Shown here piece after piece: positions 4,201-53,836 of a DNA stretch of 64,000 bases. The notes under the pieces were generated by a model, which was not told the DNA's origin, searched no databases, and worked only from the letters and a program-made list of their open reading frames with translations. The stretch lies in NCBI GenBank assembly GCA_964635445.1, contig CAZWNK010000001.1, positions 3,422 to 67,421 of the forward strand, written 5' to 3'. The translations under genes were made by a program, and so were the position numbers. The stretch comes from an uncultured Candidatus Saccharibacteria bacterium (GTDB lineage Bacteria; Patescibacteriota; Saccharimonadia; Saccharimonadales; CAZDBS01). The first letter of the stretch is position 1; every line of letters starts with the position of its first letter.

Positions 4201-5114
4201 GGTAAGACGGTGATGCACATGCTCGATGGCTCGATGCCTGCGCGGTGCATGCTTTCCAAAATCTTGAGCCGCTTCATAGCCTTTTTCTTGCGTTGGCCTT
4301 TGGTGTTTTCAACTTCTTCATTGAGCTGTTTGATGAGCTCTGGCAACTCGATCGTATCCAACATAGCTTTGAGTGCGGTACCACCCATGCCTACTTTGAT
4401 GAGGTCTTGGACCTCTTCAGGCAAGTTACGGTACTCAGCTTCGCTGATAAGTCGGAATTGTTCGAGATTTTGGAGTTGTGTCTTGCGCTCATTGTAGCTA
4501 TCCATGACTTCGCCGAGCTCTTTTGTCTGAGCTTCTGCAAGTGCTTTAGGATTCGCGTCCTCTTTTTCAGCTTCAGCTTTGTAGCGAGCTTCGATAGCTT
4601 CTTTGGCGTGTGCACTCTCGGCCTCGATATCTGCAAGCATTTGGTCACGCTTCTCGGTATTCACCGTCATGATGACGTATGATGCAAAGTAAGCAATACG
4701 CTCGAGGTTCTTGACTGTCATGCCAAGTAAAAGGCCGATCGCACTCGGTGTACCACGAAGGAACCAAATATGAGCGACAGGTGCGGCCAAACTAATATGA
4801 CCCATGCGCTCTCGTCGGACGATCGAGCGTGTGACGAGCTCACCGTTTTTGTCGACGGCTGCTTCTCGGCTACGAAGGCCTTTGTATTTGGCATCATGTG
4901 GGTTGATATCTTTTTGTGGTCCAAAGATTTTTTCGCAGAACAAACCATCTCGCTCAGGCTTCTGAGTTCGGTAGTTGATAGTTTCTGGTTTGGTCACTTC
5001 ACCGTACGACCAGTTCAATATATCTGTTGGACTGGCGACTGCGAGGCGTACTGCATCGAAATCAGCGATATTTGTACTGTGCGAAAACTTACGCATTATC
5101 GATGTCCTCCTCAA
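1284..5114 (-). CDS. rpoC: DNA-directed RNA polymerase subunit beta'
   Basis: 1276 aa with the [12 protein letters not shown] catalytic Mg motif. Immediately downstream of rpoB with a 26-nt overlap. Confidence 0.97.
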
Positions 5115-8100
5115 TTTCGTTAGCTATTACGTCATCCGTCACATCATCTGGCAATCCAGAATCACCTGCGTCATCATCGAGTACGAAGTCATCGTTGACG
5201 ATGCCCGCGCTGACACCAACTGCCTGTTGATCATCTGGCATATCGACACCTGCTGGGTGTGTTGCTTCATTGTGGATGTTTTCGGCGAGAAGTTTCTCGG
5301 CGTCTATCGCTGCTTGACCATGCTGGTCAACAAGATCGACTTTGAGGCTGAGGCCTTGAAGTTCCTTCACGAGCACGTTGAACGACTCAGGAACCTGCGG
5401 ACCCTGAATATCAGTGCCTTTGATGATCGACTCATACGCCTTGGAGCGTCCGTATACATCGTCGGACTTGAGTGTCAGCATCTCTTGAAGTGTATATGCA
5501 GCACCGTATGCTTCGAGTGCCCATACCTCCATCTCTCCGAAGCGTTGACCACCGTTTTGCGCCTTACCACCGAGAGGTTGCTGTGTGACCATCGTGTATG
5601 GTCCAGTTGAGCGGGCATGAATCTTGTCTGCAATCATGTGATGCAGTTTGATCATGTACATGTTGCCGACTGTCGTTCGTTCAGCGAACGGTTCACCGGT
5701 ACGGCCGTCATAGAGTTGTGCCTTACCATCGGTATCACGACCTGCTTCTGCGAGCAGCTCTTTGATCTTCTCAGTTGAGACGCCATTAAATGGTTCTGTG
5801 ACAACTTTCATACCAAGAGCACGTGCAGCCATACCCAAGTGGGTTTCAAATAGCTGACCGATATTCATACGAGATGGCACACCAAGCGGGTTCAAAATGA
5901 CATCAACTGGTGTCCCGTCAGCCAAGAATGGCATATCTTCTACTGGTAAAATTCGAGCGACGACACCTTTGTTTCCGTGACGTCCAGCAAGCTTATCGCC
6001 AACTTGGACTTTGCGCATCTGAGCGACAAACACCTGGATCTGCATGATGACACCAGCTTTGAGCTCATGACCATTTTCTCGAGAGAAAATTTTCACGCCC
6101 ACGACCTTGCCATGCTTCCCGTTACTCATACGCTGAGAGGTGTCACGAACATCCTTAGCTTTTTCGCCAAAGATAGCGCGAAGCAGTCGCTCTTCACTTG
6201 AGAGCTCTTGTTCACCTTTTGGCGTGATTTTTCCGACGAGAATATCACCCGGATGCACCTCGGCACCGATGCGAACAATACCGTTCTCATCAAGATGTCG
6301 AAGGCTTTCTTCTGAGACATTTGGGATATCTGCAGTGACGACTTCAGGTCCAAGCTTGGTTTCGCGAACTTCAGTCATATAGTCGACGATGTGGATTGAG
6401 GTAAGCTCATCGTCCTGAACGATTCGTTGCGACAAGATGATGGAGTCTTCGTAGTTGTAACCACCCCATGGCATGAAGGCGACAATAAAGTCTTTGCCAA
6501 GTGCAAGCTCACCATTTTCAATCGACATACCATCGATCAAGACATCGCCTTTTTTGACCTTTTGGCCTGTTTCGACGACAACTTTCTGATTGATACATGA
6601 ACCTTCGTTGCTTCGGATGAAGTGCATCGGCGTGTATTTGACATCGCCATTTTTGGTACGCAGGACTACTTCTCGTCCTTCGGCCTTGACTACCTCACCA
6701 TCTGTTTCGGCATAGACTGCTTGGCCTGAGTTACGCGCAGTGACCTCTTCCATACCAGTACCGACGATTGGTGCTGTAGGACGAAGGAGTGGTACGGCCT
6801 GTTTCTGCATGTTCGAACCGGTCAGAGCACGGTCCACACGGTCCTTCTCGATGTATGGAACAAGCGCAGCAGTTGAGCCCAAAATCTGAAGATTGGAGGC
6901 GTCCATGTGCGTTACTTGGTCCGTATCAACCTGTCCAGGGCGGAGTTTGATACGAGCACTGACACGAGATTCGACAAAAGAGCCGTCATCTTTTAGCTGA
7001 TTACCAGCTCCTGCGATGACAGCATTTTCTTCTGCTGCTGCATCGAGATACTCGATCTCGCCAGTTACTTTGCCTTTGACAACCTTGCGATATGGCGATT
7101 CGACAAATCCATATTCATTGATACGAGCATAACTACCGAGATTGAGCACGAGACCGATGTTTGGTCCTTCTGGTGTTTCTACGGCGCAGATTCGACCATA
7201 GTGTGTGGCGTGAGCGTCACGAACCTCAAATCCGGCTCGTTCTCGTGAGAGACCACCTGGACCAAGTGAGCTAAGACGTCGTTTGTGCGAGAGCTCAGAG
7301 ATTGGGTTGGTCTGCTCCATGAACTGACTCAGCTGCGAGCTAGCAAAAAACTCTCGAACTGCTGCGACAATCGGTCGAGCATTGATGAGCTGGCCTGGTG
7401 TGACAGTTTCGATATCACTCATCGACATGCGATCTTTTGCATTGCGCTCCATGCGGAGGAGTCCGATACGGAATTGTCGCTGTACGAGTTCGCCAACGAG
7501 TTTGACGCGGCGATTAGCGAGACTGTCGATATCATCAGGTTCTTCTTGGGTATTATTCAGTCGGATGATTTCAGCAATGATCGCTTTGAGATCGTCGAGT
7601 CGCATAACTCGATTTTCTGTAGTATTTGGCACATCTAGTGCGAGTCGCTTGTTGATCTTATAACGACCGACTCGAGAGAAGTCGAAACGCTTGAAGTTGA
7701 AGAACATGTTTTCGATAAGGCTACGAGCGTTATCGACAGTTGCGAGATCACCAGGTCGGAGACGACGATAGACTTCGATCAAAGCATCGCTGTTACCTTT
7801 TGATGGATCCTTTTCGATAGTTGCGTTGATGTACGAGACTTCGCCGGTATCAACGTCTTTGAATAGTTCTGTGAGCGCAGTATTTGTGCTAACACCGAGC
7901 GCGCGGAGTAGCGTAGTGACCGGGATTTTGCGTCGTCGGTCGATTTTGACATACATAGCGCCATTGGATGAGGTCTCAAACTCCAACCATGCACCACGGC
8001 CAGGAATTACCTTCGCCCCGTAGAGCAAACGTGAACCGCTCGCCTCAGCAGTGAAAAATACTCCTGGGCTACGGATCAACTGAGACACGACTACACGATC

Positions 8101-8496
8101 AGCACCGTTGATAATGAATGTTCCGCGCTCTGTCATCCATGGATAATCACCGAGGTAGATCTCTTGGTCTTTGACTTCACCAGTGACTTTGTTGGTCAGC
8201 TCGATAGTTGCTTTGAGCGGAGCCTCATAACTGATGTTGTTTTCCCGCGCTTCCATTTCGCTTATTTTGGGGGCGTCGAAATGATATTGCTTAAAACGAA
8301 GCTCTAGTTTGGTACCCGTATAATCCTCGATAGGATTAACCTCAGCAAAAATCTCGCCCAAACCCTCTTCTACGAACCATTTGAAGCTTTGCAGCTGGTG
8401 CGTGATAAGGTTTGGCAACTCGAGACGGTCCTGAGTCTTAGTGAAATATTGGCGGGCTACTTTCTTAGTAGCCTGCCTACTCACAGTCTTGGCCAT
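5089..8496 (-). CDS. rpoB: DNA-directed RNA polymerase subunit beta
   Basis: 1135 aa with conserved RpoB blocks throughout, upstream of rpoC. Confidence 0.97.
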   Translation of the reverse strand: MAKTVSRQATKKVARQYFTKTQDRLELPNLITHQLQSFKWFVEEGLGEIFAEVNPIEDYTGTKLELRFKQYHFDAPKISEMEARENNISYEAPLKATIELTNKVTGEVKDQEIYLGDYPWMTERGTFIINGADRVVVSQLIRSPGVFFTAEASGSRLLYGAKVIPGRGAWLEFETSSNGAMYVKIDRRRKIPVTTLLRALGVSTNTALTELFKDVDTGEVSYINATIEKDPSKGNSDALIEVYRRLRPGDLATVDNARSLIENMFFNFKRFDFSRVGRYKINKRLALDVPNTTENRVMRLDDLKAIIAEIIRLNNTQEEPDDIDSLANRRVKLVGELVQRQFRIGLLRMERNAKDRMSMSDIETVTPGQLINARPIVAAVREFFASSQLSQFMEQTNPISELSHKRRLSSLGPGGLSRERAGFEVRDAHATHYGRICAVETPEGPNIGLVLNLGSYARINEYGFVESPYRKVVKGKVTGEIEYLDAAAEENAVIAGAGNQLKDDGSFVESRVSARIKLRPGQVDTDQVTHMDASNLQILGSTAALVPYIEKDRVDRALTGSNMQKQAVPLLRPTAPIVGTGMEEVTARNSGQAVYAETDGEVVKAEGREVVLRTKNGDVKYTPMHFIRSNEGSCINQKVVVETGQKVKKGDVLIDGMSIENGELALGKDFIVAFMPWGGYNYEDSIILSQRIVQDDELTSIHIVDYMTEVRETKLGPEVVTADIPNVSEESLRHLDENGIVRIGAEVHPGDILVGKITPKGEQELSSEERLLRAIFGEKAKDVRDTSQRMSNGKHGKVVGVKIFSRENGHELKAGVIMQIQVFVAQMRKVQVGDKLAGRHGNKGVVARILPVEDMPFLADGTPVDVILNPLGVPSRMNIGQLFETHLGMAARALGMKVVTEPFNGVSTEKIKELLAEAGRDTDGKAQLYDGRTGEPFAERTTVGNMYMIKLHHMIADKIHARSTGPYTMVTQQPLGGKAQNGGQRFGEMEVWALEAYGAAYTLQEMLTLKSDDVYGRSKAYESIIKGTDIQGPQVPESFNVLVKELQGLSLKVDLVDQHGQAAIDAEKLLAENIHNEATHPAGVDMPDDQQAVGVSAGIVNDDFVLDDDAGDSGLPDDVTDDVIANEIEEDIDNA

Positions 8497-8816: not shown

Positions 8817-9464
8817 CTAACGATTTGCGATAACTTTGTCTACGAGACCATATGTCTTCGCTTCATCAGCGTCAAACCATCGGTCACGTTCCATATCGTC
8901 ATGGATTTTACTGACTTTTTGACCGGTATTTTTAGCCATGATCTCTTCCATGCGGCGCTTCAACTTCGTCATTTGCTCGAGCGTAATTTCCATATCCGTG
9001 ATTTGTCCTTGAGTGCCTGCGTGCGGCTGATGAATCATGACCTTGGAGTTGGGCAGTGCAAGTCGCTTACCTTTGGCACCGGAACTAAGTAAAAATGCTG
9101 CAGCACTTGCAGCCATACCGATAGCAACTGTATTCACATCTGATTTGATGTAATTCATGACGTCGTAGATGGCCAAAGAGTCATAGACACTACCACCGGG
9201 ACTATTGATATACATGAAAATATCTTTCTTGGGGTCTTCGTACTCAAGATGCAAGAGTTGGGCTACGATGAGGTTTGCTGTGTGTTCGTTGACTTGATCG
9301 CCGAGGAATATGATTCGCTCTTTGAGCAATCGTGAATAGATATCGTAGGCGCGTTCGACTCGCCCATCTGATTCGATAACTGTTGGCACTAGTATAGAAC
9401 TTTTCGGATCTTTCATATCACTACCATTTGTATTCATGAGATTCCCCTCTAATAATTGCACCAA
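8817..9464 (-). CDS. clpP: ATP-dependent Clp protease proteolytic subunit
   Basis: 215 aa with ClpP family similarity, including the MIHQPHAG and [11 protein letters not shown] regions of the active-site Ser/His environment. Confidence 0.93.
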
Positions 9465-9477
9465 TCACTATATAGAA

Positions 9478-9504
9478 TTAGCACTCTAATGTCTAGAGTG
9501 CTAA
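9478..9504 (-). promoter_or_regulatory. CIRCE operator (HrcA-type), TTAGCACTC-N9-GAGTGCTAA, about 25 nt upstream of the clpP ATG
   Basis: The sequence ttagcactc taatgtcta gagtgctaa matches the CIRCE consensus exactly (9-9-9). Confidence 0.7.
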
Positions 9505-9592
9505 TTCACTCGCGATGCTCGTTCATAGGAAGAGGCGAATCCTCCTCCTATCCCTCAGCTGAAGCTTCGGTGTTCTCCTCCCCACTTGAGAC
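9505..9592 (-). repeat. Conserved structured leader module, copy A (GGGGAGGAGAACACCG box plus 10-bp hairpin at 9526-9550), between terminator and CIRCE
   Basis: Homologous to copies at 29565-29671 and 10081-10140. The hairpin taggaggagg/cctcttccta is read on the minus strand, with a G-U pair. Stem sequences differ between copies with compensatory changes. Confidence 0.5.
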
Positions 9593-9619
9593 AATAACTC
9601 GAAATAAATTCGAGTTATT
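9593..9619 (-). terminator. Rho-independent terminator after ORF116 (AATAACTCGA-ataaa-TCGAGTTATT)
   Basis: Perfect 10-bp stem flanked by A/T runs, 17 nt downstream of the ORF116 stop on the minus strand. Confidence 0.55.
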
Positions 9620-9635
9620 GTAATTTGTTTTAATT

Positions 9636-9986
9636 CTACGCAACTATTGATTCAGTATCACTCTCTTTGGTGTGTATACCGAAGAGTTCAGCTGCTCGTG
9701 CATCAACGATAAGCATGTCTAGCTCGTCGTCGCCTTCTCTATGAACGCAGGTTTGTAGAAGTGCTTTTACGGTTTCCGGTTCTATAACAAGTTGCTCTGT
9801 CTGTGATGGCGTTAGATTTCCGTTTTTATCAACTTTTTTTCTAACAGCTTCGAATACTGCCGATGCGATCGAGGCCTCGTACATTGTAGATCGGAGAGAC
9901 AGGAGTTCAGTGGCGGCACGTATTTGTGATGGGGTTTCAAGAACTCCGCCTTGGATACGGTCATATTGGTCAAATAAAATATTCAT
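9636..9986 (-). CDS. hypothetical protein (116 aa), flanked by inverted copies of the structured module
   Basis: ORF between clpP and tig with no recognisable family. Bracketed by module copies A and C in inverted orientation. Confidence 0.55.
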   Translation of the reverse strand: MNILFDQYDRIQGGVLETPSQIRAATELLSLRSTMYEASIASAVFEAVRKKVDKNGNLTPSQTEQLVIEPETVKALLQTCVHREGDDELDMLIVDARAAELFGIHTKESDTESIVA

Positions 9987-10042
9987 ATCTTGCTTTTAGC
10001 ACAGATTGTAACCAGATGTAAAGCCTCGCAATAAACCGACGA

Positions 10043-10073
10043 CTAAGATATTGGATTCACTCCAATATCTTAG
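10043..10073. repeat. Perfect 13-bp stem hairpin (CTAAGATATTGGA-ttcac-TCCAATATCTTAG)
   Basis: Seen directly in the sequence. Abuts module copy C. Confidence 0.5.
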
Positions 10074-10080
10074 ATTCCTT

Positions 10081-10140
10081 TGGGGAGGAGAACACCGGAG
10101 CGCAGCGAAGGGATAAGAGGAGGATTCACCTCCTCTTATG
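10081..10140 (+). repeat. Conserved structured module, copy C (plus orientation; TGGGGAGGAGAACACCG box plus 11-bp hairpin at 10113-10139), immediately 3' of tig
   Basis: Same module as copies A and B in opposite orientation, with no CIRCE. Hairpin ataagaggagg/cctcctcttat is perfect. Confidence 0.5.
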
Positions 10141-10150
10141 AGTGAGTAGA

Positions 10151-11440
10151 TTATGCTTTTGCATAATCTATGAGACGGGCAAGTGTTTTCTCGCTCATCA
10201 TCTGGCTCATGATATTGCGACGAGCTTCGGATTTGTCGAGTTCGGCTTGCATCGCTGGGTCGGACGCATACTGTCCTTTGAGAAGCTGGATTCGGATTTC
10301 CAGTTCTTCTGGCGTGATCTCGATTTTCTCTTTTTCGGAGATCTCGCTCAGGACGATGCCGGTTTTGACTCGTCGTTCAGCTTCTGGTCGCAGTTCCTTC
10401 TCCTTGAGTTCTTCTTCATCTTTGTATCCAGCTTGGGTTAAGTACTCACTGATTGTCATGCCTCGGTAAACGAGATTCTGCTTGAAATCAACAAGTGCTC
10501 TTTCTAGTTGCTCCCTGACTAGGACTTCTGGAAGTGCGGCTTTACTTTTATCGACAATTTCGCTCAAGAGTTCGTTTTCATAGGTATTCTGAGCTCGCGA
10601 TTGCTTCTCGTGCTCGAGTTGAGTTTTGATATCTTTACGAAGCTCAGCCACAGATTTGAACGGGCCAGACTTGGCGGCAAAGTCGGCGTCCACTTTAGGC
10701 AATACGACTTCTTGGACTTTATTGACTGTGACTGTGAAATCTACCTTGACTCCCGCGAGAGGCTTGTGTCCATAATCTTTCGGAAAGGTGACTTTAAACG
10801 TCTTCACTTCGCCTGCTTTCATACCGACAACATTCTCTTCAAACCCTGGGATAAACGTATTAGATCCAAGTACAAGCGGATATTCTTTGCCACTTGCTCC
10901 CGCAACCGCTTCACCTTTGGCGTCTTTACCATCAAAATCAATCATGACTTGATCGCCATCTTTGGATGCACGGTCGACATCTTTTTTCTCACTCATTCGA
11001 AGTCGGAGATTTTCGATAACGTCATCGACATCTTTGTCATCAACCGGTTCGACTTTAGGTGATTTTTTGATCTTCGTATAGTCTGGCAACGAGACACTAC
11101 CAACCACCTGCACCACAGCCACGAACGAAAGAGTCGTAAATGGCACAAATGCACTCAGTGTGACATCAGGCCGATCGATCGGTTTAAGCTTTTCTTGGAT
11201 CGCCGCATCCATGTAGAGACGGCTGATCGTATCTTCTAAAAATTCTGTTTGCAAGACATTTTGATCGACACTCTTCTCGACCATCGCTATCGGCGCTTTG
11301 CCTTTACGAAACCCGCCAACTTTCAGGTCTTTTGCGAGTCGCTGGAGTGTCTTCTGTTTGAAATGCTCGAGTTCATTGCTATCGGCTGTGATCTCTAGTT
11401 TGATTTCTGTCTCAGATGTATTGGTTCTCTTGATTTGCAT
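10151..11440 (-). CDS. tig: trigger factor
   Basis: 429 aa with trigger-factor N-terminal ribosome-binding region, a PPIase-like middle and C-terminal domain. A hairpin at 10147-10170 overlaps the stop. Confidence 0.9.
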   Translation of the reverse strand: MQIKRTNTSETEIKLEITADSNELEHFKQKTLQRLAKDLKVGGFRKGKAPIAMVEKSVDQNVLQTEFLEDTISRLYMDAAIQEKLKPIDRPDVTLSAFVPFTTLSFVAVVQVVGSVSLPDYTKIKKSPKVEPVDDKDVDDVIENLRLRMSEKKDVDRASKDGDQVMIDFDGKDAKGEAVAGASGKEYPLVLGSNTFIPGFEENVVGMKAGEVKTFKVTFPKDYGHKPLAGVKVDFTVTVNKVQEVVLPKVDADFAAKSGPFKSVAELRKDIKTQLEHEKQSRAQNTYENELLSEIVDKSKAALPEVLVREQLERALVDFKQNLVYRGMTISEYLTQAGYKDEEELKEKELRPEAERRVKTGIVLSEISEKEKIEITPEELEIRIQLLKGQYASDPAMQAELDKSEARRNIMSQMMSEKTLARLIDYAKA

Positions 11441-11465: not shown

Positions 11466-11654
11466 TTAACGAACAATAATATAAACAGATATAAAGAGGG
11501 CCGCAAAAAAAGCGACAAAACATATCACACTAAGATATGTGCGAAAATTCTGCTCATGCGGCACTGCATAGCCGACACTTCGGCCTATAAATATACCGAC
11601 AAAAACGAGCGGTAGACTCAACACAAGAAGGAAGCTCGCGGCTACCCATTTCAT
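11466..11654 (-). CDS. small hydrophobic protein (62 aa, two predicted TM segments)
   Basis: ORF with strongly hydrophobic composition between hisS and tig. No known family. Confidence 0.3.
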   Translation of the reverse strand: MKWVAASFLLVLSLPLVFVGIFIGRSVGYAVPHEQNFRTYLSVICFVAFFAALFISVYIIVR

Positions 11655-13138: not shown

Positions 13139-14104
13139 CTACCCCGTTTTCTTGAATAGGTCGCTGATAATCTCTTCCAATGGAACAGACTGTATAGTGA
13201 TGTCCGCTACTTTGAATGTGGCAAAGATCCTCTGGATCGACTCCAGATAATCTTTCTGTTTGATCTTCAACTGTGCGACAGAATCCTGAAACGAAACCAC
13301 TTTTCCAAACTCTCTCAGTAGCGCAGGATCGATATCGTCTTCGAAAACAACACGCACATACTTGTACCCACCATGATCCTTCGCAAGCCTCCCCATGCTC
13401 CCGTCATAGCCGACACTTCCTTTATTGATCACTATGACCCTCTCGCACACTTCCTCGATATCATCCATGTCATGACTGGTGAGGAGCAAAGTTTTACCTT
13501 GCTCCTTGTGCAGTTGTCTCAAAAAAGCGCGTACTTCGCGTTTCGCATCGATATCCAGACCGATAGTTGGCTCGTCGAGGAAGAGTATTTCTGGATCATG
13601 AAGAATCGAACCGATGAGTTCCATTTTCATCCGTTCCCCTAGACTCAAACGTCGGATCTGCGTATTCATGACATGCTCAACTCGGAGAAGTTTGGTGAGC
13701 CTTTTGACTCGCTCGTCATATTGATCACTTGGTATCTCGTAGATATGCCGTAAGAAGACAAATGACTGCGCAGCTGATAAATCCCAGTTCAATCCTGCTT
13801 TATTACCCATGACTAAGCCTATACGTTTCAAGAACTCGGTTTTCCTATCTTGAGGAGTGAAACCAAGCACTCGTACATCACCCGTCGACGGATAGATGAG
13901 ACCGGTCAACATCTTGATCGTGGTCGTTTTTCCTGCACCGTTCGGTCCTAAGAAAGCGACACTTTCGCCTGCTTTGATAGCAAGATTTACGTCACGTACT
14001 GCATGAACTTCTTTCCAATCAGGTCGCCAGATACCTGTGATTAAATTCTTATTTGTTCTTGCACGAAATGATTTGCCCAACTGGTGTGTATCAATAATAT
14101 TCAT
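13139..14104 (-). CDS. ABC transporter ATP-binding protein
   Basis: Walker A (GPNGAGKTTT), ABC signature (LSLGERMKM) and Walker B (LFLDEPT). 4-nt overlap with the upstream permease. Confidence 0.9.
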   Translation of the reverse strand: MNIIDTHQLGKSFRARTNKNLITGIWRPDWKEVHAVRDVNLAIKAGESVAFLGPNGAGKTTTIKMLTGLIYPSTGDVRVLGFTPQDRKTEFLKRIGLVMGNKAGLNWDLSAAQSFVFLRHIYEIPSDQYDERVKRLTKLLRVEHVMNTQIRRLSLGERMKMELIGSILHDPEILFLDEPTIGLDIDAKREVRAFLRQLHKEQGKTLLLTSHDMDDIEEVCERVIVINKGSVGYDGSMGRLAKDHGGYKYVRVVFEDDIDPALLREFGKVVSFQDSVAQLKIKQKDYLESIQRIFATFKVADITIQSVPLEEIISDLFKKTG

Positions 14105-26998: not shown

Positions 26999-29491
26999 CT
27001 ATTCACTGACGAGTTTGAACGAGAGTTTGTCACTCTTAGCATCGACGGCGATTGTATCGCCTTTTTTATAGGTTCCTGACAATAGGCCATCAGCGATTTC
27101 GTCTTCGAGTTTGTCTTGTATGATACGGCGCAGTGGTCGGACGCCATTCTGCGCGTCGTACCCATGATCAATCAGATAGCGCTTGACGCTTGGTGTGACA
27201 TGGAGTGCCAGACCTGTCTTGCGTAAACGGTCACTAAGTTCTTTGAGCTGAAGCTCGAGAATACTTTCGGCATTTTTCTTAGTCAATGCGCGGAAAACGA
27301 TGATTTTGTCAATACGGTTTATGAGCTCTGGGCGCATCAACTTCTTCACCTCATCCATTACCTTGTCGGTATTCGTGTTGTGCATGGATTCAAGATCTTT
27401 GGCATCATCTTTGGTTGTCGCACTGAAGCCGAGCGTGGCTTCTTTCTGAAGTTTCTGTGCTCCGATGTTGCTAGTCATGATGATGACTGTATTCGTGAAA
27501 TCAACACGACGGCCTTTAGCATCTGTGAGGTATCCGTCTTCAAGCATCTGCAGAAGGATGTTGAATACTTCAGGATGAGCTTTTTCGATTTCATCGAAAA
27601 GTACAAGCGAATACGGTTGTCGTCTGACTTTTTCTGTCAACTGACCTGCATCTTCATAGCCGACATAGCCAGCTGGAGCCCCAACAAGACGCGACACAGT
27701 GTGGCGCTCACCAAACTCACTCATATCAATTTTGACAAGAGATTTCTCACTACCAAAATATTCACGAGCCAGGACTCGTGCCAGCTCTGTTTTACCGACA
27801 CCAGTAGGTCCGAGAAATATAAACGAACCAATCGGACGACGCGCATCACTGATACCTGAACGGTTTCGACGAATCGCACGCGCCACGGCCGCGACAGCTT
27901 CATCCTGACCCATGACATGTGCTCCTAAAAGTTTTTCGAGTCCCAATAGAGCCTTGGCTTCTGTCTTCACAACTTTCGACACCGGCACGCCAGTCATCGT
28001 AGCGACAACATGCGCAATGTCATCACTCGTCAAAGCAAGGTCAGTCGTCTCACTTTCCGATGTTTTCAGTGCTTCGAGTTGCTTATTGATCTGACTCATG
28101 CGAGTTTTGTATTTCGCAGCCTTTTCGTAGTCCTCGGCATCAACAGCTTCTTCCATGCGAGCCGTGACACTTCGGAGTTCCTTTTGAAGTTTGCGTTGTT
28201 CGGGTTTTACTTTATGGCGCTCAATCCGTACATGAGATGCCGCCTCATCGATCAGGTCGATGGCTTTATCAGGCATGTAACGGTCATTGACATACCGTTT
28301 TGCCATCAATACAGCATCTTCGATGACTTCATCCGAGATCTTCACACCGTGATGCGACTCATATTGCTTCTTAAGCCCTTTGAGAATGGCAATTGTCTCC
28401 TGAACAGTAGTCTCAGGGACGACAACGGGCTGAAAACGACGTTCCAGGGCGACATCTTTCTCTACATATTTGCGATACTCGTCCATAGTGGTCGCCCCGA
28501 TGACGCGCATCTTGCCACGAGCCAGCGCAGGTTTGAGTATGTTGCCAGCATCGATAGAACCTTCGGCCGCTCCAGCACCCACGATTAAGTGTAGCTCGTC
28601 GATAAACACGATGATATTGGGGTCGCTGACGATTTCATCCATGACTTTTTTGAGACGTTCTTCAAATTCGCCACGATATTTCGTACCCGCCACCATGCCA
28701 GCAAGATCCAACATCACGACGCGTTTCTCCAATAACACATCAGGCACATCCTCTTGAACAATACGTTGCGCGAGTCCCTCGACGATGGCTGTTTTACCGA
28801 CCCCAGGTTCACCGATGAGCACTGGATTGTTTTTTGTACGTCGACCTAGAATTGTCACCATTCGTTTGATCTGAGGTTCACGACCGACAACAGGATCGAG
28901 TTCACCCATGCGAGCTTTTTCAGTCAGGTCAGTGCCAAAATAGTCGAGTGCACTACCACGCTTCTTGCCTTTGCGCTTTGTACGAGTCGAACTTTCATCA
29001 TCATCTTGTTGTCGATTGAGATACTGCTCCAATTCATTCATGATGGAGTCCACATTGACATTCATCTCGTATAGCAACTGAGTGCCTCGCGCGTTTTTCT
29101 GGCTGAGTAGCCCGTAGAGGATGTGCTCGGTACCGCAATAATCTTGACTGTATTCTTGAGCGATATCCCAACTCATTTTAAGTGTCAGTTTGGCTGTCTC
29201 GCTCAACCCTTTACTGCCGAGATTGATGACCAGTGTCTTTGGCGTCATATTTAGTGCCATCCGCGCACGATCAATAGAAACACCGTTCGTTTGCAATATC
29301 TTCGATCCGATTGAGCCATCTTGAGCCAAGACACCGAGTAAAAGGTGCTCCGTCCCGATGTATGCGGAACCGAAGCTCCGCGCTATGGCGTCAGCATGCT
29401 GCAAACTCGCCCGAGCATTATCGGTAAGGTGTCGTATAAAATCTGCAAATTCTTGATAGTCTTCTGGCATAAAATCCCACTTTCTACCCAT
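26999..29491 (-). CDS. clpC: ATP-dependent Clp protease ATP-binding subunit ClpC (class III two-AAA+ unfoldase)
   Basis: Clp_N repeats and two AAA+ modules (GEPGVGKT; GPTGVGKT) with a sensor and C-terminal D2-small domain. True start may be the second Met (MPEDYQEF). Confidence 0.9.
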
Positions 29492-29537
29492 CCAAGTTAG
29501 CGGTTTTATTTCCTGGGATACACCTATGATACTAAAA

Positions 29538-29564
29538 CTAGCACTCTCAATGCAAGAGTGCTAA
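29538..29564 (-). promoter_or_regulatory. CIRCE-like operator (CTAGCACTC-N9-GAGTGCTAA) upstream of clpC
   Basis: 17 of 18 consensus positions match, with exact N9 spacing, about 50-70 nt upstream of the clpC start. Confidence 0.65.
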
Positions 29565-29671
29565 ACGCTATGCTGACGCTGGCTTATGAGAAGAGGTGAT
29601 TCCTCTTCTCATCCCTCTCCGCTTCCACTTACAGCTGCAGCGGATTCGGTGCTCTTCTCCCCAAATGAGAC
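29565..29671 (-). repeat. Conserved structured leader module, copy B (GGGGAGAAGAGCACCG box plus perfect 10-bp hairpin at 29587-29611)
   Basis: Same order as copy A: terminator, module, CIRCE, clp gene. Stem tgagaagagg/cctcttctca has two compensatory pair changes relative to copy A. Confidence 0.5.
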
Positions 29672-29699
29672 AAAAAGACCGGAATAAATCCGGCTTTTT
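29672..29699 (-). terminator. Rho-independent terminator after nusA (AAAAAGCCGGA-tttat-TCCGGCTTTTT)
   Basis: Perfect stem with a T-tract, 24 nt downstream of the nusA stop. Confidence 0.6.
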
Positions 29700-29723
29700 G
29701 TAAGTTTAACTAGCCACGAGCCG

Positions 29724-34562: not shown

Positions 34563-34594
34563 TTTTCGCACTTTTGACAGCAAAAGTGCGAATG
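34563..34594. repeat. Palindromic hairpin GGTTTT-CGCACTTTTG-acag-CAAAAGTGCG-AAT, 3' of rplS (family copy 1)
   Basis: Perfect 10-bp stem. A second copy at 48691-48726 has a covarying stem. A further hairpin (CCAGCTTTAGCTGG) follows. Confidence 0.5.
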
Positions 34595-48690: not shown

Positions 48691-48726
48691 GGTTTTGCAC
48701 ACTTTTGACAGCAAAAGTGTGAATAG
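48691..48726. repeat. Palindromic hairpin GGTTTT-GCACACTTTTG-acag-CAAAAGTGTG-AAT, 3' of uvrB/NUDIX (family copy 2)
   Basis: Homologous to 34563-34594 with a compensatory G-C to A-T change in the stem. Followed by a second hairpin (GTCCGGGCGATACCGGAC). Confidence 0.5.
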
Positions 48727-52969: not shown

Positions 52970-53042
52970 GGCCCTGTACCTCAGTCGGCAGAGGACCTGT
53001 CTAAAAAACAGGAAGTCGGTGGATCAATACCACCCAGGGTCA
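52970..53042 (+). tRNA. tRNA-like sequence, Phe-type body with anticodon AAA and non-canonical T-loop (ATCAATA), no CCA; possible degenerate or pseudo tRNA
   Basis: Manual cloverleaf: GGCCCTG TA CCTC-AGTCGGCA-GAGG A CCTGT-CTAAAAA-ACAGG AAGTC GGTGG-ATCAATA-CCACC CAGGGTC A. Acceptor stem is 7 bp with one G-U pair. Confidence 0.4.
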
Positions 53043-53079
53043 CTGGATCTTCGGATCCTTGACGTAAACGCTTCACCTA

Positions 53080-53154
53080 GCGCGCTTGGCTCAGTGGCAG
53101 AGCATCACCTTGCCAAGGTGAGGGTCACGGGTTCGATTCCCGTAGTGCGCTCCA
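53080..53154 (+). tRNA. tRNA-Gly (anticodon GCC), 75 nt, CCA encoded
   Basis: Manual fold: GCGCGCT TG GCTC-AGTGGCA-GAGC A TCACC-TTGCCAA-GGTGA GGGTC ACGGG-TTCGATT-CCCGT AGTGCGC T CCA. Confidence 0.9.
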
Positions 53155-53261: not shown

Positions 53262-53836
53262 AGCTCGACCATCTCACTGGTTCCTGGCTCTCCCCCAGAG
53301 AGATGGTCGAGCACCCTCGTCCAGGTCGTCTTCATCGACCTCCCGATCGTCGCTCAGGCGACCTGGACACCCCGTTCCTCTCGTGGGATCACGTGAATCC
53401 GTCGTCACGCGTCATCTCACGAGAGGGACCAAGTGTAGTACCGGTGCTGCAGCTAGAGTGTTTGCTATCACTCGAAAGGCATTGTGCTCCATAGAGTCGC
53501 AACTATGTTGAGCTGGCTTGCTGCAGCACCATGCTTCACCCCGGGAGTGCCTGTGGGCATCGTACACGAGTGAATTCCTCCTCGTAAGGTGAATGAAGTC
53601 AATGTCACCTCGGTGCCCCAGGCACTCCCAAAGCAACGTACCGCGAGTACGGTTGACCACCTTGGTCCCTTCGCGCTACATTGCTTCACACGTATCCATA
53701 AGTGCATACCTTATGCTGATGAGCTGAAAACAGCGAAATACGAGTTAACAGAATCTAGAAGTCGGAATACAGAATCCAGAAATTGACTTGTAATAAATAA
53801 ACTTCTGGATTCCGAGATCCGGCTTCCGGCTTCTCA
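53262..53836. other. 575-bp ORF-free, highly structured non-coding region: candidate large structured ncRNA (strand undetermined)
   Basis: Five perfect long inverted repeats in series: 53266-53275/53298-53309; 53321-53328/53359-53366; 53377-53385/53418-53426; 53443-53453/53520-53530; 53544-53553/53619-53628. Only short overlapping ORFs with no coding signal. Confidence 0.35.

Follow-up and report, generated by a model that had tools for sequence, protein, structure and literature searches.

An apparent mobile cassette between tig and clpP in a Saccharibacteria genome is probably three neighbouring features of different age

The window analysed here is a 64-kb stretch (64,000 nt) of the genome of an uncultured Candidatus Saccharibacteria bacterium (assembly GCA_964635445.1, contig CAZWNK010000001.1, positions 3,422 to 67,421). 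Between tig, which encodes trigger factor, and the protease gene clpP, it carries a small orphan open reading frame (ORF), ORF116, bracketed by two inverted copies, A and C, of a structured sequence referred to here as the core. In the initial annotation, these copies were read as terminal inverted repeats of about 60 bp, between which a cassette had been mobilised. The apparent cassette is probably made up instead of three adjacent things of different age: an orphan ORF, a conserved block at the Clp promoter that includes copy A, and a later copy C. ORF116 would be an orphan in a tig-clpP gap that holds different unrelated small ORFs, or none, across the lineages of Saccharibacteria. Copy A would be the core of a selected, genus-specific block ahead of clpP, the same block being present at clpC. 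Copy C would be a later and partial (62-nt) inverted duplicate of the core, which may have arrived in an insertion of about 153 nt at the junction of the tig stop and the ORF116 start; this insertion would have supplied a new tig stop codon and a hairpin, and would have parted ORF116 from tig.

Read in this way, the supposed mobile cassette is mostly ordinary, being a lineage-specific orphan in a variable gap together with a local duplication. The part that merits attention is the block of approximately 165-190 nt that precedes clpP and clpC in both species known to carry it; it is 83-88% identical between them and matches no known RNA family or operator. The second of these species, referred to as the sister species, is represented by the metagenome-assembled genome (MAG) GCA_964503775.1, in which L008 is the tig-clpP locus and L143 the clpC locus. 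More distant Saccharibacteria were represented by L139, L141 and L142 (trigger factors 58-60% identical to that of the window) and L144 (ClpC 71% identical), and still more distant genomes by L009 and L010. The core was searched for in the 64-kb window and in 34 kb of the sister genome, and all comparative statistics were obtained from five sequences.

The repeat and its copies

The inverted copies A and C were confirmed at their reported place by repeat search, alignment and a covariance model. A third copy, which had been implied by the label "copy B", was located ahead of clpC.

9522-9584, minus strand: core copy A, with hairpin 2 at 9525-9551 (11-bp stem, 5-nt loop), a variable middle and the 16-mer GGGGAGGAGAACACCG at 9568-9583
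10081-10142, plus strand, inverted relative to copy A: core copy C, with the 16-mer at 10082-10097 and hairpin 2 at 10113-10139, ending 8 nt from the tig stop
29586-29662, minus strand: core copy B, with an 18-nt hairpin insert

The longest inverted pair returned by the repeat search in the window has arms of 44 nt (9518-9561 and 10103-10146) that are 82% complementary, and a second pair (9564-9584 and 10081-10101) has arms of 21 nt at 95%. Local alignment merges both pairs into a single 62-nt homology, approximately 9522-9584 against 10081-10142, over which the two copies are about 85% identical; the arms share at most about 17 nt of uninterrupted identity, and one pair of the copy C hairpin is changed on both sides with respect to copy A. 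The homology of A and C is confined to these 62 nt, and that of A and B extends over about 190 nt in local alignment, from the promoter through the terminator.

The 64 kb contain exactly three copies of the 62-nt core (A, C and B). A 23-nt degenerate pattern taken from the hairpin half gave three matches against 0.00 expected, and the covariance model built from all known copies scored 107 bits for A and 86 bits each for C and B, the next best match reaching 11 bits. Only reverse-strand matches of 12.6-17.4 bits, which lie on the palindromic hairpins of the same three copies, exceed this background. In 34 kb of the sister genome, the model found two copies, at clpP and clpC only.

Several wider searches were made. 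At least 120 metagenome stretches matched the 16-mer GGGGAGRAGARCACCG; none of the matches listed had the hairpin half or the CIRCE operator described below, and they were dismissed as chance. Viral contigs scanned for the core, the hairpin and a further hairpin of the region (hairpin C, see below) gave no additional copy; five contigs matched short DNA patterns, hairpin C had no exact match, and the sole model match (22.9 bits) was rejected, as it falls within a coding gene of a phage and lacks a hairpin. In the Rfam search, only three tRNAs in the window passed the gathering thresholds, and at E up to 10 the region 9300-10300 gave only chance hairpin matches of at most 23 bits. A micro-gene spanning the core was also considered. 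A frame is open there, yet conservation at third codon positions equals that at the first two, and neither start nor frame is kept in L008 or copy B. A small protein across the core was ruled out by this codon-position conservation, fourfold sites being saturated between the species, and the core is not protein-coding.

The block ahead of clpP and clpC

Copy A sits in the middle of its block. On the clp-sense strand, the block consists of the terminator hairpin of the upstream gene, the box TTGTCTCA, the 16-mer, the variable middle (11-29 nt), the 11-bp hairpin with its perfect stem (ATAGGAGGAGG, a 5-nt loop and CCTCCTCCTAT), a 20-nt linker and the controlling inverted repeat of chaperone expression (CIRCE). 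In other bacteria, CIRCE is the binding site of the HrcA repressor.

9467-9495, minus strand: predicted clpP promoter, TAGACA-17-TATAGT (10/12 matches in the promoter scan), its -35 hexamer lying within the CIRCE spacer
9478-9504, both strands: CIRCE operator of clpP, TTAGCACTC-N9-GAGTGCTAA
9505-9524, minus strand: 20-nt linker GAACGAGCATCGCGAGTGAA between core and CIRCE, near-identical at the clpC of the sister species in alignments
9587-9621: the box TTGTCTCA and hairpin 1 (hairpin at 9591-9621), following ORF116 and homologous to the bidirectional terminators of copy B, L008 and L143
29524-29706, minus strand: paralogous clpC block, with the nusA terminator hairpin (29678-29694), core B, CIRCE and promoter
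29538-29564: CIRCE operator of clpC

The promoters and terminators are consensus predictions. Equivalent promoter sequences were recognized by inspection in L008 (TTGCAT-17-TATAGT) and at copy B (TTGCAT-18-TATCAT). CIRCE is present in the window at two sites, exact or with one mismatch (four matches counting both strands), against 0.02 expected, and these sites overlap the predicted -35 and spacer; hrcA was not identified within the 64 kb. Hairpin 1 had been described as the own terminator of ORF116. The hairpin is indeed present, but the terminator scan flags it on the plus strand only, and no T-run follows it in the direction of ORF116. Its loop, ATTTATT, is like that of L008 and L143 (ATTCATT), and the stems differ in sequence in the alignment.

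The clpC block is 80% identical to the block of copy A and 83% identical to its orthologue in L143. In all four Clp copies, the centres of the hairpin and of CIRCE are 46-48 bp apart, and the core has the predicted clpP or clpC promoter downstream and the terminator upstream of it. A promoter scan and inspection of the four aligned blocks revealed no convincing candidate for transcription of the core in either direction.

In tig, clpP, hisS and clpC, identity at fourfold-degenerate sites between the window and the sister species is 29-35%, that is, at saturation. For the orthologous blocks, identity reaches 88% at clpP and 83% at clpC, and for the paralogous ones 80-87%. Hence, it was concluded that the block is under selection, because 83-88% identity persists where neutral sites are saturated; purifying selection is regarded as shown by this comparison of sequences, and the block would be either functional, or homogenised and selected. 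The 11 pairs of the hairpin are formed in all five sequences (55/55 cells), and three of them have changes on both sides, a score that was reached in 6/500 shuffles. The helix is thus kept through compensatory changes (n = 5 sequences).

Covariation beyond the hairpin was seen in copy B, where the 16-mer GGGGAGAAGAGC (29647-29662) and the purine arm ATGAGAAGAGG (29586-29612) both contain GAGAAGAG, the other copies having GGAGGAG. This three-way covariation of the 16-mer with both arms comes from a single divergent copy, B, as does the apparent co-evolution of the 16-mer and the 3' arm, for which the outcome in duplex energy depends on the strand. The loop and pyrimidine arm of hairpin 2, GGATTCACCTCCTCC (9536-9551, 10124-10139 and 29586-29602), pair with the Shine-Dalgarno-like GGAGGAGG and resemble the 3' end of 16S rRNA, GGATCACCTCCTT; the window has no 16S gene.

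The tig-clpP gap and the orphan ORF116

The initial annotation had also proposed that the segment between the two genes is an addition to a conserved adjacency, and this was borne out: the ancestral tig-clpP arrangement is a tight one, to which the segment represents a lineage-specific addition, tig overlapping clpP in L009 and L010 and a gap of 90 nt without any ORF being present in L139. The overlap in these distant relatives indicates that co-transcription of the two genes is ancestral. The gap holds an unrelated 79-aa ORF in L141 and ORFs of 88 and 177 aa in L142, the order hisS-tig-clpP-rpoB being kept in L139, L141 and L142. In L008, tig is followed after 2 nt by ORF111, then by a bidirectional terminator, the core, CIRCE and clpP, and copy C is absent. 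Ahead of clpC, the sister species carries ORF84, which is unrelated, followed by a terminator, the core and CIRCE.

CIRCE was found in perfect form at clpP in L139 (5312-5338) and L141 (5570-5596) and at clpC in L144 (about 2906-2932), and as a degenerate CIRCE-like site in L142. From its presence at the Clp genes of relatives outside the genus, it follows that CIRCE control of these genes is ancestral, and the presumed HrcA regulon of the clade would include Clp protease genes, beyond chaperone genes. It was also observed that, outside the genus, the -35 hexamer again lies inside the CIRCE spacer at Clp promoters. The covariance model did not find the core in L139, L141, L142 or L144, which makes it genus-specific. 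On the genomes compared, copy C is specific to the species of the window and the core to the genus.

ORF116 itself was recovered as annotated.

9636-9986, minus strand: ORF116, 116 aa, ATG start

Its codon-usage score in frame is 0.19 bits per codon, a value that falls among those of real genes and exceeds that of any off-frame window, and its GC content at third codon positions (GC3) is 0.345 as against 0.489 for the genes of the window. An exhaustive HMMER search of 1.84 billion representatives returned ORF116 itself and ORF111 of L008 only. These two proteins are 34% identical, and the products of neighbouring genes are 79-95% identical. No Pfam, NCBIfam, PHROGs or PADLOC family was found for ORF116, and a sequence profile search of the PDB gave only a designed protein (E 0.006). 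Its AlphaFold2 model has a predicted local distance difference test (pLDDT) score of 61.5, and Foldseek found nothing below E 0.7 for it in the PDB. The earlier description of ORF116 as a protein with no assignable family therefore holds; the structure-prediction check that had been suggested gave no assignable fold, and no housekeeping homologue emerged. By these measures, ORF116 is a real but young, fast-evolving, genus-restricted orphan gene.

Small orphan ORFs were noted in several gaps of the hisS-tig-clpP-rpoB and nusA-clpC regions (L141 5308-5547; L142 5338-6130; L008 5924-6628; L143 2543-2797). In an all-against-all BLASTP comparison, the gap ORFs of different lineages showed no homology except that of ORF116 with ORF111. 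A role of ORF116 as the protein that binds the core was judged unlikely, as the ORF is 34% identical between the species and the core about 90%; moreover, the clpC block of the sister species is preceded by the unrelated ORF84.

Copy C and its insertion

Alignment of the tig-ORF116 junction with L008 places copy C in a stretch that the sister species lacks.

10001-10153, minus strand: approximately 153 nt without counterpart in the sister species, between the end of tig and the ATG of ORF116
10043-10073: hairpin C, a perfect 13-bp palindrome that stands between core C and ORF116 and has no second copy in the window

The insert contains a new TAA stop for tig, the inverted core C, hairpin C, none of whose 12-mers recurs in the window, and a TACAAT hexamer resembling a -10 element (10005-10010) ahead of ORF116. 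It is bordered by GCAAAAGCA (10154-10162) and GCTAAAAGCA (9991-10000), both of which correspond in the alignment to the one 3' end of tig in the sister species. This bordering direct repeat of about 10 nt looks like a duplicated target, in which case ORF116 would already have abutted tig when copy C arrived. It is likely that the ORF was present before copy C.

The reading of A and C as the terminal inverted repeats of a composite element, or of one similar to a miniature inverted-repeat transposable element (MITE), that carried ORF116 into the gap draws on their inverted arrangement around a single orphan ORF, with about 85% identity over 62 nt, and on the status of the tig-clpP gap as a hot spot of insertion in this clade. 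It was nevertheless found very improbable. The cassette is not present or absent as a unit in relatives, since the sister species has ORF111 and copy A without copy C, and copy A is part of a longer conserved block that is also found at clpC. No target-site duplication lies outside the repeats, the sequences there being actcgcgatg (9508-9517) and tagattatgc (10147-10156), which share no direct repeat. There are no dispersed copies in the 64 kb and 34 kb searched and no transposase nearby in the ORF list of the window, and the insert that bears copy C has no terminal inverted repeats of its own, its best end-to-end inverted alignment (5.5) being below the shuffle mean (6.1). The other suggestion made at the outset, duplication of a leader element in both orientations, agrees best with the findings, except that the element is probably not a leader, since it lies upstream of the predicted promoters of clpP and clpC.

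The inverted repeats also bracket a promoter-like site and hairpins, as they would if the 62-nt repeats flipped a segment of about 500 bp and so swapped the promoter or terminator facing clpP and ORF116. Such an invertible switch was considered the least likely of all the readings. No recombinase gene adjoins the segment, the perfect identity of the arms is short (about 17 nt at most), and one orientation only was seen in the window and in seven metagenome contigs from other samples, a weak test given that these are assemblies and not reads. The seven contigs show no difference from the window (100% identity) over 9380-10260, or 9380-10189 in the shortest, and therefore say nothing on selection or inversion. 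An integron cassette (attC) was rejected, the copies being inverted and not direct, and no integrase being present between rpoB and hisS.

Possible roles of the core

Within the explanation by three features of different age, the leading guess, which is a tentative one, is that the core acts as a DNA-level second control site, approximately 47 bp upstream of CIRCE on the Clp promoters. A site of this kind is favoured because no usable promoter for the core was found on either strand, the core lies between terminator and promoter, and its hairpin keeps a fixed centre distance of 46-48 bp to CIRCE. It is preferred over RNA readings, though not by a wide margin. Copy C would then put ORF116 under the same influence as the Clp promoters.

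A number of points weigh against this account. Folded RNA or single-stranded DNA would be a more usual setting than a protein operator for compensatory changes in a palindrome, and the G-T pair in copy A and the one in a mini-hairpin of L143 are tolerated only on the clp-sense strand, a hint of an RNA with this orientation. In copy B, the spacing of 16-mer and hairpin changes by 18 nt, which is awkward for a rigid complex of DNA and protein. The blocks contain neither a CtsR box nor an HspR-associated inverted repeat (HAIR) site: in 9466-9628 and 29524-29706, no match to the CtsR heptad repeat or the HAIR consensus was found at up to three mismatches. As to the history of copy C, the direct repeat that borders its insert is not significant by itself, as an equally good one arose in 17% of shuffles (60x60 shuffle test), and gain in the species of the window is not firmly distinguished from loss in the sister species. 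Finally, only two species carry the element, and the comparative statistics have five sequences behind them.

If the core were instead an RNA cis element, it would be transcribed in the clp sense by read-through from tig-ORF116 or nusA and act as RNA; it might serve as an untranslated Shine-Dalgarno-like stabiliser, a processing site or a switch between two pairings. In the species of the window, copies C and A could form a duplex of about 60 bp in a tig-ORF116-clpP transcript, which a double-strand-specific RNase could cut to free the ORF116 mRNA. The three covarying pairs, the fact that the only non-Watson-Crick pair of the hairpin is a G-U pair in the clp sense, the joint change of the 16-mer and purine arm in copy B, and the variable-length middle, which forms its own stems in copy B and L143, are all consistent with such an element, as is the ancestral co-transcription of tig and clpP. 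When 9470-10170 was folded as one RNA (minimum free energy -271.5 kcal/mol, z = -14.5), the predicted C:A duplex enclosed ORF116. However, the core lies between a terminator hairpin and a predicted promoter, where little RNA is expected, and the duplex would require read-through of two hairpins; moreover, the duplex cannot be the conserved function, because the sister species has no copy C. On this strand, the cognate partners show no clear gain in energy (-12.4 vs -12.0 kcal/mol). The RNA cis element is rated as rather unlikely.

A more elaborate idea is that the 16-mer, purine arm and pyrimidine arm form a three-part switch dedicated to Clp, providing a second input independent of HrcA, and that copy C pairs with copy A in read-through RNA so as to excise or silence ORF116. 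The joint change of all three parts in copy B would suit alternative pairing or a triple helix of the purine-motif type; the idea was given a small chance.

Transcription of the opposite strand was assigned a slimmer chance still. It would produce a small RNA rich in C and U (CCUCCUCC, UCUCCUCCCC) that ends at the bidirectional terminator and pairs with the Shine-Dalgarno sequences of its targets, copy C being a version derived from the 3' untranslated region of tig. A hairpin, mostly with a T-run, does follow every copy within 7-11 nt, and the changes in the copy B 16-mer restore pairing with its own arm on this strand only (-5.5 to -12.5 kcal/mol). On the other hand, no usable promoter is present, the TG-extended -10-like hexamers (TAATTC, TAAATC, TAAGTC and TAAACG) lacking the essential final T; the G-T pairs turn into A-C mismatches on this strand; and Rfam gave no match.

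Saccharibacteria are episymbionts with tiny genomes and few known regulators. Were the second control input of the Clp genes true, it would be among the few regulatory elements described for this group; in the literature on CIRCE and HrcA, nothing on Saccharibacteria was found among the top full-text matches listed.

Neighbouring genes and other observations

The flanking genes clpP and tig, as originally named, were verified by their Pfam domains.

5089-8496, minus strand: rpoB
8817-9437, minus strand: clpP, ATG at 9437 with AGAGGGG before the start; Pfam CLP_protease (PF00574), E 2.5e-80
10151-11440, minus strand: tig, trigger factor; Pfam Trigger_N, FKBP_C and Trigger_C
26999-29470, minus strand: clpC, a ClpC-type ATPase, with copy B upstream and nusA preceding copy B

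Between the window and the sister species, ClpP is 95% and ClpC 92% identical. The closest match of the trigger factor in reference genomes, at 79% identity, is in a Candidatus Saccharibacteria MAG, namely that of the sister species (L008), and this match assigns the window to Saccharibacteria. Beyond tig, hisS and a membrane-like ORF of 62 aa lie on the minus strand, the order being hisS-tig-ORF116-clpP-rpoB. The 62-aa hydrophobic ORF between hisS and tig is conserved in both species (window 11466-11654; L008 3065-3253), and different ORFs of 150 and 210 aa occupy its position in relatives.

In the sister MAG, a run of N flanked by duplicated sequence adjoins clpP (L008 5098-5197), and another contig, L151, has exact 55-nt duplicates 155 nt apart (6342-6551 and 13695-13904). 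Both look like scaffolding artefacts; one of the duplications in L008 is the CIRCE/promoter segment of clpP. Elsewhere in the window, a palindromic 31-nt hairpin, TTTTCGCACTTTTGACAGCAAAAGTGCGAAT, was found at 34563-34593 and 48694-48724 (90% identical), each time directly downstream of a minus-strand gene, and is probably a shared terminator. A further inverted repeat, with 40-nt arms that are 73% complementary and 5 nt apart, lies at 53750-53834, about 600 nt downstream of two tRNA genes (52970-53151).

Comparison with known systems

As taxonomically restricted orphan genes, ORF116 and ORF111 have no homologues outside one genus, evolve fast and have low GC3. A syntenic gap that holds unrelated ORFs elsewhere is the ordinary pattern for orphan genes, and ORF116 is nothing unusual in this regard.

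The core shares with MITEs, repetitive extragenic palindromic (REP) sequences and bacterial interspersed mosaic elements (BIMEs) the character of a short, hairpin-forming, non-coding intergenic sequence, such repeats often abutting terminators, and the insertion of copy C has a direct repeat of about 10 nt. It differs from them in its numbers and placement, with three copies in 64 kb and two in 34 kb, all of them except copy C at Clp promoters. In addition, the insert lacks terminal inverted repeats, no target duplication surrounds the A-C pair, and purifying selection acts on the orthologous copies.

Shine-Dalgarno-type stabilisers of mRNA (STAB-SD) are known from the leader of Bacillus cryIIIA. 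The core resembles them in having strong Shine-Dalgarno-like sequences (GGGGAGGAG, GGAGGAGG) upstream of a gene with no start codon after them. Unlike in STAB-SD, the site lies upstream of the predicted promoter and may be outside the mRNA.

Promoters that combine a CtsR box with CIRCE occur in Staphylococcus and Streptococcus. Heat-shock promoters with two operators, HspR-HAIR and HrcA-CIRCE, are described for Helicobacter and Campylobacter (e.g. PMC7464140). The core differs from such operators in being a 27-bp purine/pyrimidine palindrome with a G-rich 16-mer that matches neither the CtsR box nor HAIR; its covariation suggests that folding matters, and the protein that would bind it is hypothetical. 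The core is not a member of the CtsR or HspR systems, because their operators are absent from the blocks. The arrangement itself is alike: a CIRCE overlapping the promoter is joined by a second palindrome upstream, and the pair is shared by stress genes that include those of the Clp proteins.

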